From an uncultured Planctomycetales bacterium (GTDB lineage: Bacteria > Omnitrophota > Gorgyraeia > Zapsychrales > Fredricksoniimonadaceae), in assembly GCA_964572155.1 (NCBI GenBank), contig CAZNDZ010000001.1:846290-910289 (forward strand): a DNA stretch of 64,000 bases. The letters run 5' to 3'. Numbering within the stretch: position 1 is the first letter of the stretch; the number at the start of each line of letters is the position of its first letter. A program made the translations under genes and the position numbers. Shown in pieces: positions 10,266-14,556 of the stretch. Under the pieces are notes generated by a model. That model did not search any database, was not told the origin of the DNA, and saw only the letters and a program-made list of their open reading frames with translations.

Positions 10266-10294
10266 GAATAGCGTAGATATCACACATAAGTTTG

Positions 10295-10306
10295 CCCCTA
10301 TATAAT
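10295..10306 (+). promoter_or_regulatory. -10-like element (cTATATAAT) about 20 nt upstream of the paralog-1 start; no convincing -35
   Basis: TATAAT at 10301-10306 in the 61-bp queA/paralog-1 spacer. Confidence 0.25.
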
Positions 10307-10326
10307 CTATATGCTATTCTTTCCAC

Positions 10327-13300
10327 ATGTTTAAGAAGCTTTTAGCCCTATTTTTATGTGTATGCATGTGTCCAATCTCTCAGGTACGTGCACAGCCTGT
10401 GGTCTTGCCGGCACTTGGGACGATGGTCAATTTAAGCCCATCCGTTAATCCTTCTGTATTAAAAGGGATTAAAGTTCACTTAGACAATCCTTTAAAATTT
10501 GATTTCATTTTAGATCCAGGCAGTAATAGAGGCGCTACATCAGATGATGCAACTAAGCTGATCAGATATTTTTTAGCGGCTTTAACCACACCAGAAAATG
10601 ATTTATGGGTAAATTTAAGTCCGTATGAAAAAGATCGCATTGTTCCAAATAGCTTTGGTCAAACGGAAATGGGACGTGATCTTTTAGCCCAAGATTATCT
10701 ACTTAAACAACTCACGGCATCGTTGGTTTATCCAGAAGGGGATGTTGGTCGAGAATTCTGGAAGAGAATATACCAAGAATCTCCGAATAAAAATATTCCA
10801 GTTAATACGTTTAATAAAGTATGGATTGTTCCAGACAAAGCAACTATCTTTGAAAATGCTCAATCAGGGACGGCTTTTGTTACTGAATCAAGTCTAAAAG
10901 TTTTAACGGAGCAAGATTACCTAGCGGGTGAAAAGAATGCGTCATCTTCTACGTCTAAAGTTGTCCGTGACATTGTCATCCCGCAATTAACAAAAGAAGT
11001 AAATGAAGGAGCAAACTTCGCGTCACTCCGTCAGGTTTATCAAAGTTTGATACTCGCAACGTGGTACAAAAATAAGATCAAAGATAGTATTCTCAATCAA
11101 GTTTATGCGGATAAGAATAAAGTGTCTGGGATTAATATTGCAAATCCAAATGAAAAGCAAAAGATTTATGAACAATATCTACAAGCTTTTAAGAAGGGCG
11201 CCTATAACTATATCAAAGAGGAAAAAGATCCCATCACCCATAAAGTAACGCCACGTAAATATTTCTCCGGTGGTTTTAATTTAGCCATGACGGGAGTTAT
11301 TAAAATTGATAATAGCATGACAGCGACGCTACGAAATCGGTTGATGCAAATTGCGCGATTAATAACGGTCGGTGTGGTATTAACAGTTAGTCCAGTATCA
11401 ACCACATTAGCTCAAACGTTAAAGTTTCCTACACAAGCCAGTGAAGAAATAAAGTTTAAAGATTGGCAAGTACAACGTTTCTTCAGTCAAGCAACGTCAG
11501 GAGATGTTCAGGCTATTTCAAGGCTTACTGTCCTTAGTAAACGAGGGAATGAGGAGGCCATTGAGGCAATTAGACGATTAATTTATGTCGAAAATACACA
11601 GGTGAGTAAAACAGCGTTGGAAGCTTTTTTGGTGACACCATTAGATGGGGTGGAGCATGAGGTAAAAATTGTTCGCGATGCGATGCGTTTACAACATAAA
11701 GAGGCTAAAGATGCATTATCTCGATTGGTTAAAGCGGGAAATATTGAAGCATCGCAATATTTAATTTTTAATACAGAAATTAAGGATCCTGTTCGAGAAC
11801 AGGCATTTAAGAATTTATTATCTGTATTAACATCAAAGAATGCAAAGACTGTTGAATGGAGAGGTCTAGTTGATGCATTATTAAGATTTTATTCAAATGA
11901 ACCAAACAATGAAACATTGCGTTTAATACTTGAGAACTTAGCACATGAAGGTGATCTTTATAGCACTCTTGTAATAATCAAAAGCAAGTTGATCAGAATA
12001 GATGTAAATAAATTGGCTTTACATGTAATGGATTGGAATGGTGGTGACTCTGTCCTTCTTGATTATTATCAAACTGACCCTTCCGAGAATACGGTAAAGG
12101 CAATCATCAATTACTTATTCTCAACTAAACAAACTTTTCAGAATCTTTTAATTATTTTGAGCGATTTTAATAAAACCAAGGAAATCTTAGAATTGCCAGA
12201 ATATAAAGATAGAGTTCCTGAAAATCCTCGAGTTATTGTTTTACTTGGAGCGTTGGGTCATGAAAAATCATTTGAATTTGCCAAAGAAAATCAACCTGAC
12301 GAACTTAGTCGACTCTATTACTACCGTTTAGAGCTAACGGCAAGAAAAGGTGATGGAGAGGCATTAGATCGACTAGAAGAATTAGCTAGCGATGAAGAAG
12401 AGGCAGACAAAGATGCGTTAGCCATATTAGCGTATTTATCACAACGCAATGATGTGTCAGCAGAAGTAAAAGGGCGCATTAACAATTTTATTGATGACCA
12501 TTTTAAATTATTTGTTCCTATTTTTACTAAGGAGAATTGGCAAGATTATGCTAAAGATCCCAAACATAAGGCCAACATTCAAACACTATTTGAAGATTTA
12601 GAAACCAACCCAAATAGGTTGCTTGCTTTAGAATGGGCTGGTCTTTTGAAGAAAGAGCATGTAGCTCGGCATCCTTTTTCTAAAGAAATATTTGATTCAA
12701 TGCTAAGGAATTGGCCAGATATGCTGAAGATTTATTTTAAGCATAGTGATGACATTCACCCTGTTTTTTCTGTATTAACACAGAAGTGGCCACAGACGGC
12801 AATGTCAAATATTCTGCAACGTGAGCGGTCTGAACTTCAACAGGAGCTCTTGAAGCGTTTAAAAGATAATAATAATTTGGGTGCAATGGCTAATCTTTTT
12901 AAGACGGAAGAAGGAAAGTTGGCTTTTTTATTGCAGGCCTTAAAAGCAGAAAATCCGCAAGCATTGCCATTGCTTAAAAGCTTTGTGGAAGAAAAGCCTG
13001 ATAGAATAGAAACACTATACCACGTTTTTTCGACAGGTCTGGTCGGAACAAGTGTCGATCAATATTTTATACTAAATCCTCAATTAGAAAAAATATTATC
13101 AGGCGTGGACGTAAAGAATTTTAGATTCATCCGTCCTTTTGGCAATTTAGATAGAGAAGAAAGTGATCTGATCTTCATGGGTAATCGAAGCGTGCTTGAA
13201 TATGTATTAAAGGATGCCATTAATTCTAATGATATTGCTAACAAGCTTGTCGATATAGGTCCCCATGTTCCTGAGTCTTTGCTTAATTGGCTTAAGAATA

Positions 13301-14499
13301 TGGACATCACTCCGTATGCTAAAAATAGTGCCCTGCTTCGGATGTTCTTTTTAGTGGGAAATGCTCAAGCAACTAAGCTTATTCAAGACGGCGTATCCAA
13401 ACAAAATAATGATATCTTTGCGCCAGTTAATGTTTTGAATTTGACTGGGTTTGGAGATCCAATGTTTAAATCGCTTAGTTCAGACGCACAGGCATATTTG
13501 GATAAATTACGTAAAGACGGCATGGGTGATTTTAAATCGAATTTACGTAAGTCTGACACTCATCAAAGTAATCATATTTTATTAAAGTTATACCTAGCGG
13601 TTTTAGTAAATATGCAGGAACGTTTTCATCTTTTTGATTTTGAAACCTTTAAGAAAATTTCTACACAAATGATCGGAAGAATGACCCTAACCGTTGATTT
13701 GAATAATGCTAATTCGGGTTTTGAGTTTGGGTATCGTTTAATCTTAAATCTTGAAAGTATTGATGAAATGCTATTTGTTACTGGGCATGAGGTAGCACAC
13801 AATTTATTGTTTGCGATGACTAAAGATAAGATTGACGGCATCAAAGGTGATCCAAACAAGATTTTGCAGTATGGATCCATTCACGAGTATTTTGCAGATA
13901 TGGTGGGGTTTGCTTTGGTCAAAGATACCAAAGCCATAGACAAGATGATGCAACGTAATTTCTTATGTGAATTTTGTGCGGGCTTAAAGACAAAAGAGGA
14001 TTGGAAGGATCCGATGTCTAATGAAAATACAAGAGAAGTGCACTACATTCCTCGTTACAGCAGAGGGGCTTTCTTGTTAATGGCAAAGAATGCTGGCATC
14101 GAACCTGCTAAATTCTTAGCTGCTCAATTTACTGAGAATCAAAACCCAATTCTAGCTTATACCGGCACGTATGAAGATTTTTACCATTATTTCTTTTATA
14201 CATTGGCCTTAGGTCTGAAAGTTAATTATGAATATGATCCAACCCTTAATATTCCCTCTAATATTGAAAAGATGTTATCGCTGGCTAAAAAGAACGCTGA
14301 TAGCGCTCAATTAGGATTAAGTAACACAGGGGGGATTGATTTAAATTCCACGAATCTTAATCTTCAAAATGCTGGCTCTGCCATTAAATTTAATATTGAT
14401 TCTGCAATGTTAAAGCAATTACAAAATGCGGCTGGTTTTACGCCTACCATTACTAGCATGAAGCCGACGCAGGACTTATTACAATTTCTAGGAATATAA
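10327..14499 (+). CDS. giant secreted protein, family paralog 1 (1390 aa): signal peptide, conserved N-module, hydrophobic linker, HEAT-like helical repeats, HExxH zincin-like region, conserved C-tail
   Basis: Uninterrupted 4.17-kb ORF; signal peptide MFKKLLALFLCVCMCPISQVRAQ; HEVAH…SIHEYFAD at 13786-13898; collinear with 17431..21630; N-module and C-tail shared with 32917..34902 and 46994..50179. Confidence 0.8.
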   Translation: MFKKLLALFLCVCMCPISQVRAQPVVLPALGTMVNLSPSVNPSVLKGIKVHLDNPLKFDFILDPGSNRGATSDDATKLIRYFLAALTTPENDLWVNLSPYEKDRIVPNSFGQTEMGRDLLAQDYLLKQLTASLVYPEGDVGREFWKRIYQESPNKNIPVNTFNKVWIVPDKATIFENAQSGTAFVTESSLKVLTEQDYLAGEKNASSSTSKVVRDIVIPQLTKEVNEGANFASLRQVYQSLILATWYKNKIKDSILNQVYADKNKVSGINIANPNEKQKIYEQYLQAFKKGAYNYIKEEKDPITHKVTPRKYFSGGFNLAMTGVIKIDNSMTATLRNRLMQIARLITVGVVLTVSPVSTTLAQTLKFPTQASEEIKFKDWQVQRFFSQATSGDVQAISRLTVLSKRGNEEAIEAIRRLIYVENTQVSKTALEAFLVTPLDGVEHEVKIVRDAMRLQHKEAKDALSRLVKAGNIEASQYLIFNTEIKDPVREQAFKNLLSVLTSKNAKTVEWRGLVDALLRFYSNEPNNETLRLILENLAHEGDLYSTLVIIKSKLIRIDVNKLALHVMDWNGGDSVLLDYYQTDPSENTVKAIINYLFSTKQTFQNLLIILSDFNKTKEILELPEYKDRVPENPRVIVLLGALGHEKSFEFAKENQPDELSRLYYYRLELTARKGDGEALDRLEELASDEEEADKDALAILAYLSQRNDVSAEVKGRINNFIDDHFKLFVPIFTKENWQDYAKDPKHKANIQTLFEDLETNPNRLLALEWAGLLKKEHVARHPFSKEIFDSMLRNWPDMLKIYFKHSDDIHPVFSVLTQKWPQTAMSNILQRERSELQQELLKRLKDNNNLGAMANLFKTEEGKLAFLLQALKAENPQALPLLKSFVEEKPDRIETLYHVFSTGLVGTSVDQYFILNPQLEKILSGVDVKNFRFIRPFGNLDREESDLIFMGNRSVLEYVLKDAINSNDIANKLVDIGPHVPESLLNWLKNMDITPYAKNSALLRMFFLVGNAQATKLIQDGVSKQNNDIFAPVNVLNLTGFGDPMFKSLSSDAQAYLDKLRKDGMGDFKSNLRKSDTHQSNHILLKLYLAVLVNMQERFHLFDFETFKKISTQMIGRMTLTVDLNNANSGFEFGYRLILNLESIDEMLFVTGHEVAHNLLFAMTKDKIDGIKGDPNKILQYGSIHEYFADMVGFALVKDTKAIDKMMQRNFLCEFCAGLKTKEDWKDPMSNENTREVHYIPRYSRGAFLLMAKNAGIEPAKFLAAQFTENQNPILAYTGTYEDFYHYFFYTLALGLKVNYEYDPTLNIPSNIEKMLSLAKKNADSAQLGLSNTGGIDLNSTNLNLQNAGSAIKFNIDSAMLKQLQNAAGFTPTITSMKPTQDLLQFLGI

Positions 14500-14520
14500 A
14501 TTCTTACGCTAGTGAACTCT

Positions 14521-14547
14521 TTTAAATAATCACATTTGTGTTATACT
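14521..14547 (+). promoter_or_regulatory. candidate sigma70-type promoter for tgt (TTTAAA-15-TGtTATACT extended -10)
   Basis: TGnTATACT at 14539-14547, ten nt upstream of ATG 14557. Confidence 0.3.
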
Positions 14548-14556
14548 TTTTTCCTT

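Follow-up and report, generated by a model that had tools for sequence, protein, structure and literature searches.

In Escherichia coli and many other bacteria, queA and tgt are found in the order queA-tgt-yajC-secDF. In the DNA studied here, 64,000 nucleotides (nt) of contig CAZNDZ010000001.1 from a bacterium of the phylum Omnitrophota (hereafter the window), queA does not stand directly upstream of tgt on the same strand. As the earlier note on this DNA had pointed out, one large gene lies between them, and with its spacers it parts the two by 4.29 kb; tgt is followed not by yajC-secDF but by trmD-rplS-rnhB, as it is across the Omnitrophota. This gene, P1, is one of four paralogs (P1 to P4) that together fill approximately 13.6 kb (approximately 21 %) of the window and encode proteins with a conserved N-terminal domain (N-domain, or head), a variable middle (cargo) and a short conserved C-terminal domain (C-domain, or tail). 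The splitting of queA-tgt is in itself ordinary genome evolution; the family to which P1 belongs is large, lacks any annotation and has an unusual architecture. Our reading, to which we give a probability of about 0.6, is that P1 is a gain in the lineage of the window and that the paralogs belong to a very large and so far undescribed family of Sec-exported modular proteins found mainly in Omnitrophota.

The Omnitrophota are abundant, uncultivated, ultra-small bacteria that are thought to live on other microbes, and a family with a conserved head and tail, a hypervariable cargo and no database annotation is an obvious candidate for a host-interaction toolkit. In the MARTX toxins, conserved N- and C-terminal regions flank variable effector modules with short processing sites between them; these toxins have no Sec signal, use type I secretion and carry glycine-rich RtxA repeats and a cysteine protease domain. 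The family described here likewise has conserved ends, a variable enzyme-like middle and a short motif, [DN]xAM, at module borders as a candidate cleavage site, but it differs in having a Sec leader, and Pfam and NCBIfam gave no match to the RtxA repeats or the cysteine protease domain. It resembles the polymorphic toxins (Rhs/YD, CdiA, MafB) in being a large multigene family with a conserved trafficking part and a hypervariable, recombining cargo, and in the discordant histories of head and cargo, seen here for the N-domain and cargo of P1. However, in polymorphic toxins the toxin is at the extreme C-terminus and is accompanied by an immunity gene, whereas here the cargo is internal and the C-domain closes the protein. 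No small immunity-like open reading frame (ORF) follows P1 or P2, as tgt and rpsB follow directly, and the vapBC pair after P4 is absent at orthologous loci. Much of the cargo in relatives also resembles metabolic or signalling enzymes, not nucleases or deaminases.

The PE/PPE proteins of mycobacteria have short helical-hairpin N-domains, carry no Sec leader but leave the cell through ESX (type VII) systems, lack a conserved C-terminal cap and have GC-rich genes. As generally known, they share with the present family that they are phylum-restricted, expanded, exported, scattered and fast-evolving, with a conserved N-domain and a variable remainder; no homology between the two was found using Pfam. 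Giant proteins of Omnitrophota ("Archaeovorins" and related) are 10,000-147,000 amino acids (aa) long with many membrane helices, include C39/S8 peptidase or dockerin modules and adjoin secretion or pilus loci (West-Roberts et al. 2023 preprint; Nielsen & Lui 2026 preprint). They come from the same phylum and have in common with our family HEAT, HATPase_c, receiver, methyltransferase, HAD, NUDIX, GT1, PPDK_N and peptidase domains as well as a signal peptide or membrane segments. In contrast, the members of our family that were listed are 0.6-2.8 kaa (thousand aa) long, usually carry only the leader, and are defined by N- and C-domains that feature in neither preprint. The four paralogs fall short of 10,000 aa and of many helices, and none of the C39/S8 peptidase, dockerin/TSP3 or SecA-like modules was found in them using Pfam.

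P1 at the queA-tgt junction

One genome per GTDB species was scanned with tgt as query and the window proteins were mapped onto the loci; the closest relative found (L083, a contig of JGI 3300056831) was identified by look-up of the P2 ortholog. Omnitrophota loci with tgt identities as low as 58 % retain the block g1849...ruvB-spoIID-queA-tgt-trmD-rplS-rnhB, and the loci with an empty P1 site share a backbone of up to 11 genes where the contig reaches far enough. The earlier note had asked whether queA and tgt abut in relatives, and they do. In L083, whose housekeeping proteins are 79-99 % identical to those of the window (tgt 94 %, rpsB 96 %, pyrH 99 %) and whose gene order is that of the window from scpA to ptsI, the queA-tgt spacer is 57 nt long, and alignment of the junction revealed no remnant of P1 in it. 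The two genes also abut in nine further Omnitrophota loci (L002 with 88 % tgt identity, L003, L004, L006, L007, L026, L009, L010 and L012) and, with gaps of 30-36 nt, in L013, L015 and L025. The boundaries of P1 are clean, with the stop codon of queA (10263-10265) on one side and tgt's own conserved promoter on the other. The gene queA is the last of a compact upstream block, and its 3' end aligns with queA of L083 and L002. For tgt the most likely start is the ATG at 14557 rather than the listed TTG at 14536 (listed ORF, 14536-15705), and the resulting N-terminus, MSTPFFQLL, aligns with those of L002 and L083; only 9 nt separate its -10 element from the ATG. With the corrected starts, the queA-P1 and P1-tgt spacers are 61 and 57 nt, respectively. 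Since queA and tgt abut in L083 and nine other loci, P1 is most simply a gain in the window's lineage, and the sequence comparison is read most economically as one gain that followed the separation from the closest relative sampled.

Not all members of the phylum have queA next to tgt. In fourteen more distant loci, inserts of 0.45-3.1 kb that do not belong to the family lie between the two genes, and two further loci (L001 and L005) are rearranged there, because of which the junction must be considered generally unstable in the phylum.

The same junctions hold other genes in the higher-GC Omnitrophota, where conserved gene sets unrelated to the family were found at tgt|trmD and queA|tgt. Those at tgt|trmD (L008, L013, L014, L017, L018, L019 and L024) include ORFs of approximately 410-465, 1020-1050 and 410-430 aa, in most cases with another of approximately 140-160 aa in front, and from their sequences look like a regulator plus efflux-pump operon. 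Most of the queA|tgt gaps (L008, L011, L014, L018, L024 and L031) hold ORFs of approximately 218 and 350-365 aa.

The N-domains of the four paralogs are 53-63 % identical to one another. P1 has a single full-length homolog, P2 (44 % identical over the full length, 37 % in the cargo and 52 % in the C-domain), which lies 2.9 kb away, and the P1 cargo and C-domain are homologous only to those of P2. The P1 N-domain, however, groups with those of other paralogs (73-77 %) and not with that of P2 (63 %, the same as P2 versus any member). As the divergence of P1 from P2 (cargo 37 % identical) far exceeds that of P2 from its ortholog (cargo 60-68 %), the sequences indicate that P1 is not a copy of P2 made after the split from L083. 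They would fit a translocated or recombined old family member, possibly a head/cargo chimera. We propose that an already diverged member reached the queA|tgt junction by recombination or translocation, without a mobile element of its own.

The other paralogs have different histories. P2 has an ortholog at the same rnhB|rpsB junction in L083 (7904-12093), and P4 has orthologs at the xerC|waaA junction in L081 and L084. Because orthologs occupy the same junctions in related genomes, we conclude from these comparisons that P2 and P4 are older residents and not recent insertions. The ortholog of P3 (P0124, in L082) lies in a different neighbourhood, and further family members were found between tgt and trmD (L004), after tgt (two members in L031) and downstream of rnhB (L001). 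In L083 the reading frame of the P2 ortholog switches four times, whereas 13 kb of surrounding genes show no such damage. This ortholog has probably become a pseudogene, and family members would then be dispensable. The vapBC pair next to P4 is absent at xerC|waaA in L081 and L084 and is a further small addition at that junction. The earlier note had seen in the four genes a pattern of repeated insertion or duplication of an autonomous unit. The gain of P1, the promoters described below and the scatter of members over junctions agree with this, but P2 and P4 are not recent insertions. From the empty-site and orthologous-site comparisons, which document gain, retention, recombination and loss between essential operons, the evolution of the family is best described as birth-and-death turnover at inter-operon junctions, with members gained, kept and lost between compact housekeeping operons.

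As a separate observation, the junctions of P3 and P4 also collect accessory low-GC DNA, namely the YhcG nuclease gene and the vapBC-like pair, respectively.

Architecture and distribution of the family

Searches with P1 find at least 4,456 proteins, almost all of which match only its first 22-31 %. A HMMER scan with the four N-domains retrieved 8,237 clusters (50 % identity) at E<=1e-3 and 6,546 at E<=1e-30, and the domain is N-terminal in all 150 of the matches listed. The named family matches are from Candidatus Omnitrophica/Omnitrophota, and at least ten members are encoded on the 1,344,502-bp contig of this genome. The family is not described in the Omnitrophota papers and preprints or the domain survey searched, and is delimited here, with its borders, by the following working definition: a Sec leader, an N-domain ending KYFSGG, a middle delimited by [DN]xAM and a C-domain GGIDL...P.I..I.P. 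All four window paralogs and 114 of the 120 best matches conform to it, and both end domains are present in these 114. Members are 661-1399 aa long in the window and 0.6-2.8 kaa (up to 2,816 aa) among the relatives listed.

The leader combines a basic n-region with a hydrophobic core, and an AxA site stands before Q-[DE]-F-x-LPxPG; its sequence logo makes a clear case for a cleavable Sec/signal peptidase I (SPase I) signal peptide. It is usually the only hydrophobic segment, though P1 has a second such stretch at aa 339-357 (11341-11397). The N-domain of approximately 300 aa ends with PRKYFSGG and is followed by the variable middle; the C-domain of approximately 60 aa has the consensus GGIDL...IKFH.DPAML.QLQNAPGF.PVII.I.P...L..FLG. 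No match for the family was found in Pfam, NCBIfam or the PDB sequences, and a profile search against PDB sequences also returned nothing. AlphaFold2 models the N-domain as an alpha/beta fold with moderate confidence (predicted local distance difference test 74.8, predicted template modelling score 0.67), and Foldseek found no match for this model in the PDB. A search with a C-domain profile returned only short fragments at contig ends. The idea that the C-domain repeats the N-domain's first hairpin was rejected (hhalign E 0.47 over 7 columns). Separately, an isolated match to the second half of the C-domain lies outside the long ORFs in L017 (1978-2079), after a 455-aa ORF without annotation, and looks like the relic of a lost family member.

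The motif [DN]xAM marks the borders of the middle. The form D.AM occurs 347 times in the 120 best matches against 14.6 expected from shuffling (24-fold), and in the four paralogs [DN]xAM was observed ten times against 0.89 expected, while it is not enriched in the housekeeping proteins of the window (1 observed, 3.2 expected). It is found just after the N-domain, between cargo modules, approximately ten residues before GGIDL and inside the C-domain (DPAM), and it has no conserved flanks. In P1 and some relatives (P0003, P0012) a stretch resembling a signal peptide follows the Met of the motif. A processing site, a fusion scar and a recombination joint are candidate roles of the motif.

Cargo domains recorded in relatives (precomputed Pfam hits and source names) include methyltransferase, HAD, PLD, kinase, phosphatase (PP2C), receiver, HATPase, glycosyltransferase (GT), NUDIX, HEAT and peptidase domains, among others, and a cargo often consists of several such enzyme-like modules. 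The cargo of P1, searched alone against 5.8 billion proteins, found only P1 itself, and BLAST within the set of family proteins fetched gave only P2 and fragments; by these searches the cargo shared by P1 and P2 is an orphan. Towards its end P1 contains HEVAH (aa 1154-1158, 13786-13800) with EYFAD 29 residues after the second His (ExxxD at approximately 13885-13899), and P2 contains HELAH (20938-20952) and EYFSD. Hence, the HExxH motif and downstream Glu ligand of the zincins are present in both. The matches to the curated family Peptidase_M48 were 16.8 and 13.0 bits against a cut-off of 20.3 (E 0.006 and 0.094). The P1 and P2 cargo thus end in a zincin-like segment and may be metallopeptidases.

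Distant homologs of the N-domain core were found in Streptomyces (30 % identity over 296 aa, E 4e-37), in hypothetical proteins encoded on giant plasmids, e.g. WP_121549542.1 (773 aa; Streptomyces fungicidicus plasmid p1) and WP_266737726.1 (816 aa); such homologs lie at L088 4819-7140 (WP_121549542.1) and L089 4789-7239. The motifs WVNL.P.E.DR, GR.LL..D..LK, WI.P and VN.G..[YF]A.LR.VY are conserved between the two groups. Both are exported with a signal peptide and share the N-domain core, but the Streptomyces proteins, which have no Pfam match, carry the domain in their C-terminal half, with a P/T-rich linker and then a C-terminal membrane anchor behind it. Their core is bracketed by GG(I/V)DF and GGVD(L/F), and they lack a hypervariable cargo and a separate C-domain and have not undergone a large expansion. 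The signal peptide and membrane anchor place the domain outside the cytoplasm there too. In the Omnitrophota proteins the N-domain ends with YFSGG-[FVM]-x-[LFM] and the C-domain begins with GGIDL, which suggests that head and tail could derive from a single domain into which cargo was inserted; this idea found no support from hhalign or AlphaFold.

The genes themselves stand apart from the packed housekeeping genes. On both sides of every paralog the junction is a non-coding gap of 36 nt or more (eight of eight), against 7 of the 42 other junctions (Fisher p = 1.2e-5), and one of these seven actually contains ptsH. Hence, the spacing noted earlier is typical of the paralogs but not unique to them. 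A 29-nt block, TTGnnn-N17-TAtnCT with an upstream TG, stands before all four paralogs. Its pattern was derived from the same four sites, so that its rarity within the window is partly circular; the only other match there has one mismatch and lies within queA on the opposite strand. Independent support comes from its presence before orthologs and relatives in L083, L081, L084, L001 and L004, and the -10 element ascribed to P1 is real as a motif common to the paralogs and their relatives. The -10 hexamer is 6 nt from the start codon in P1, P2, P3 and the L083 and L001 (GTG) members (-10/start regions 10315-10329, 17419-17433 and 32905-32919; L083 7887-7906; L001 approximately 15780-15795), and no Shine-Dalgarno sequence was found before any of these five. 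Leaderless or near-leaderless mRNAs are therefore predicted for them, while P4-type genes have leaders of 16-19 nt. No intrinsic terminator was predicted after any of the four paralogs. Of the autonomous transcription unit previously suggested, the promoter stands, but no terminator, target-site duplication, inverted repeat, adjacent tRNA gene or dedicated integrase was found.

Divergence, composition and competing explanations

Comparison with orthologs revealed that, at the sequence level, divergence of the cargo is several-fold faster than that of the conserved ends. P4 is 84-89 % identical to its orthologs in the N-domain and 70-82 % in the C-domain, and 31 % or less, over part of the length, in the cargo. 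For P3 and P0124 the values are 88-91 % (N-domain), 70 % (C-domain) and 25 % (cargo, collinear), and for P2 and its ortholog 83-84 % and 73 % at the two ends, with the cargo value given above.

The paralogs are AT-rich, as the earlier note had estimated for the middle regions of P1 and P2. Their GC content is 0.358-0.386, compared with 0.432±0.018 in 42 housekeeping genes, and GC content at third codon positions (GC3) is 0.300-0.345 compared with 0.416±0.040 (minimum 0.341; Mann-Whitney p = 7e-4). Relative synonymous codon usage (RSCU) distances do not separate the paralogs (0.10-0.125) from the housekeeping genes (0.117±0.028). GC3 of P4 is a mosaic (N-domain 0.47, cargo 0.26, C-domain 0.49), with P3 at 0.36, 0.25 and 0.33, respectively; in P1 and P2 it is approximately 0.30 in N-domain and cargo and 0.31-0.32 in the C-domain. 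The L001 member has a similar mosaic in total GC (0.49 versus 0.35). Because low GC3 tracks the divergence rate of the segment, AT-richness probably reflects fast in-situ divergence of the cargo toward an AT-rich mutational equilibrium rather than a foreign origin. For genome annotation this means that low GC in these genes is a mark of rapid evolution and need not imply horizontal transfer.

The composition unlike that of the host is also what would be expected of genomic islands, and the paralogs might have come from a lower-GC donor via a phage, an integrative element or a transposon. The low-GC accessory genes beside P3 and P4 and the tyrosine recombinase gene adjoining P4 fit such an origin, as does a viral-classed IMG/VR contig (L085, IMGVR_UViG_3300031576_000207; 18-3728 and 7839-11498) that carries a 1219-aa member at its end, approximately 4 kb downstream of a gene for a GpJ-like phage tail-tip protein, and could be a prophage border or phage cargo. 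However, searches for direct or inverted repeats around each paralog found only short, imperfect, chance-like matches, none flanking a gene, and no tRNA gene is adjacent to any paralog, the only ones in the window being at 24381-24745. The recombinase is not a dedicated integrase but the conserved housekeeping neighbour of topA (topA-xerC), also in L081, and the domain was found in none of 50,697 GenBank phage records and in only 3 of 2.9 million IMG/VR viral contigs, with plasmid matches limited to the distant Streptomyces homologs. P2 and P4 are vertically inherited at fixed positions, the conserved ends of P4 have a host-like GC3 with only the fast-evolving middle AT-rich, and the collinearity of the P3 cargo with its ortholog at 25 % identity points to divergence in place. 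We consider import of this kind very unlikely. Equally little can be said for a local origin of P1, by tandem duplication of the segment from tgt to P2 and subsequent loss of the first tgt-trmD-rplS-rnhB copy. This path would yield the exact gene order observed and would account for the proximity of the only full-length homolog, and a shared 3' flank of P1 and P2 was examined as a sign of segmental duplication. The flank resemblance is weak (p ~0.03, uncorrected) and not robust (p = 0.22 against the L083 flank) and was rejected, the divergence between P1 and P2 far exceeds that between P2 and its ortholog, yet L083 is without P1, and the P1 N-domain is closer to other paralogs than to P2. A precise deletion of an ancestral P1 in L083 and other relatives seems to us unlikely, if somewhat less so. 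It would be in keeping with a family prone to decay, witness the frameshifts in L083, with an unstable junction in the clade and with the age of P1, whose split from P2 far predates that of the window from L083. It would, though, need several independent losses or an unlikely tree, as queA and tgt abut in the closest relative and at least nine further lineages (tgt 61-94 %), and the L083 spacer is free of any P1 remnant and no P1 ortholog is present among 5.8 billion proteins.

As to function, we infer that these proteins are exported scaffolds with an exchangeable, fast-evolving cargo that is possibly host-directed. The conserved ends would provide for export, anchoring or delivery and the middle would be active outside the cytoplasm. 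As the phylum consists of nanobacteria that depend on hosts or are predatory, its targets might be hosts or prey. Instead, they might be the cell's own periplasmic or surface proteins (enzymes of envelope maintenance, surface-layer or adhesin scaffolds) with middles under relaxed constraint. The Sec/SPase I leader, the lack of a dedicated secretion signal or of neighbouring secretion genes in the window, the surface-anchored distant homologs in free-living Streptomyces and the dispensability suggested by pseudogenisation in L083 favour this, and it is a possibility to be taken seriously, even if we hold it to be doubtful given the extreme expansion (at least ten members in a 1.34-Mb genome), cargo that includes ATP- or SAM (S-adenosylmethionine)-dependent enzyme types useless in the periplasm, and the combination of conserved ends with hypervariable cargo that is the usual pattern of interaction and conflict proteins. 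A more far-reaching form of the exported-scaffold proposal, in which the scaffold would be a split ancestral extracytoplasmic domain, still in one piece in the Streptomyces homologs, with cargo modules jointed by [DN]xAM as processing or recombination sites, and self-promoted genes gained, lost and recombined (head against cargo) at junctions would form a rapidly diversifying arsenal of exported or host-delivered effectors, is speculative and probably too ambitious. If true, such split-domain effectors would be the small-protein counterpart of the giant multi-enzyme proteins of Omnitrophota.

A number of points weigh against a P1 gain and a family of exported, cargo-bearing scaffolds. No donor copy or ortholog of P1 was found in the protein database searches, including that of 5.8 billion proteins, and a single precise loss in L083, together with absence in more distant lineages, is possible in place of a gain. 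L001 (tgt 91 %) and L005 (79 %), being rearranged at queA-tgt, are uninformative, and the frameshifts in the L083 ortholog of P2 could be assembly errors. The Peptidase_M48 matches are sub-threshold and cover 23 residues only (the HExxH turn). AlphaFold is confident only for the N-domain, with no confidence for the P3 middle and the C-domain and no confident placement of the C-domain relative to the N-domain. Members in L004 and L031 are not AT-rich, which makes the contrast in composition clade-specific. Finally, everything said on function is inferred, it is puzzling that a Sec signal should precede enzymes of a cytoplasmic type, and the delivery machinery was not identified.

Layout of the window

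The window is compact, with all genes on the + strand and approximately 43 % GC. Gene names were checked using Pfam, which confirmed those used in the earlier note, including the placing of P2 between rnhB and the rpsB-tsf-pyrH-frr operon and of P4 between xerC/D and vapBC, where only the PIN gene was Pfam-scanned. P3 does follow pfkA, and the "AT-rich islet" on its other side is a gene for a YhcG/DUF1016 PDDEXK nuclease. The starts of P2 and P3 are most likely the ATGs at 17431 and 32917, based on upstream-region alignment and relatives.

Table 1. Coordinates of genes, domains, motifs and promoter-like elements in the window
Feature	Position	Strand	Remarks
SpoIID gene	8105-9265	+	Pfam
queA	9255-10265	+	S-adenosylmethionine:tRNA ribosyltransferase-isomerase; Pfam Queuosine_synth, E 2.9e-127
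P1 promoter-like block	10292-10320	+	TTGCCC, 17-nt spacer, TG-c-TATTCT; -10 ends 6 nt before ATG
P1 gene	10327-14499	+	1390 aa
P1 signal peptide		+	approximately aa 1-22
P1 N-domain	10327-11274	+	aa 1-316
P1 cargo		+	aa 317-1334
P1 C-domain	14329-14496	+	
P1 motifs	11278-11289; 14299-14310; 14398-14409	+	NLAM; DSAQ; third site
tgt extended -10 element	14539-14547	+	TGtTATACT; in P1-tgt spacer (57 nt); conserved in L083 and L002 queA-tgt spacers
tgt	14557-15705	+	queuine tRNA-ribosyltransferase; Pfam TGT, E 4.8e-152
trmD-rplS-rnhB block	15674-17379	+	Pfam; syntenic with tgt across Omnitrophota
P2 promoter-like block	17396-17424	+	TTGCTG-N17-TATCTT; nearly identical in L083
P2 gene	17431-21630	+	1399 aa; between rnhB and rpsB
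P2 N-domain	17431-18399	+	
P2 motifs	18433-18444; 21430-21441	+	NKAM (both)
P2 C-domain	21454-21627	+	
rpsB-tsf-pyrH-frr operon	21814-24352	+	Pfam; 3' of P2
pfkA	31849-32820	+	Pfam; followed by P3
P3 promoter-like block	32882-32910	+	one mismatch to pattern; -10 TACACT ends 6 nt before ATG 32917
P3 gene	32917-34902	+	661 aa; between pfkA and YhcG-type nuclease gene
P3 N-domain	32917-33927	+	
P3 motifs	33970-33981; 34645-34656	+	DRAQ; DYAM
P3 C-domain	34726-34899	+	
YhcG/DUF1016 PDDEXK nuclease gene	35180-36214	+	GC 0.37; accessory gene at P3 junction
xerC/D-type recombinase gene	46068-46928	+	Pfam; topA upstream, followed by P4
P4 promoter-like block	46949-46977	+	TTGACA-N17-CATACT with TG; conserved in L081 and L084
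P4 gene	46994-50179	+	1061 aa; between xerC/D and vapBC
P4 N-domain	46994-48010	+	
P4 motifs	48053-48130; 48533-48544; 48764-48775; 49925-49936	+	listed sites; six [DNS]xAM in cargo
P4 C-domain	49964-50176	+	
AbrB-like antitoxin ORF	50246-50503	+	called from position and sequence; no Pfam scan
PIN (VapC) toxin gene	50479-50889	+	Pfam; followed by waaA and lpxK

The GC content of the AbrB-like antitoxin and PIN pair (50246-50889) is 0.33-0.38, and the promoter of rpsB (TTGCAA-N16-TATACT) and its leader lie within 21631-21813. The gap at 24381-24745 is occupied by tRNA-Lys, tRNA-Leu and tRNA-Gly genes. The 277-nt "gap" between a CofD-like gene and ptsI (26503-26779) contains the ptsH (HPr) gene according to the annotation of L083, which was missed by the 100-aa ORF list. 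A small low-GC ORF at 62060-62434 (124 aa, GC content at second codon positions 0.23) has weak homologs (29-35 %) directly after rnhB in L004 (8571-8900) and directly before queA in L008 (5506-5811), which thus sit at the same variable junctions as the family genes.

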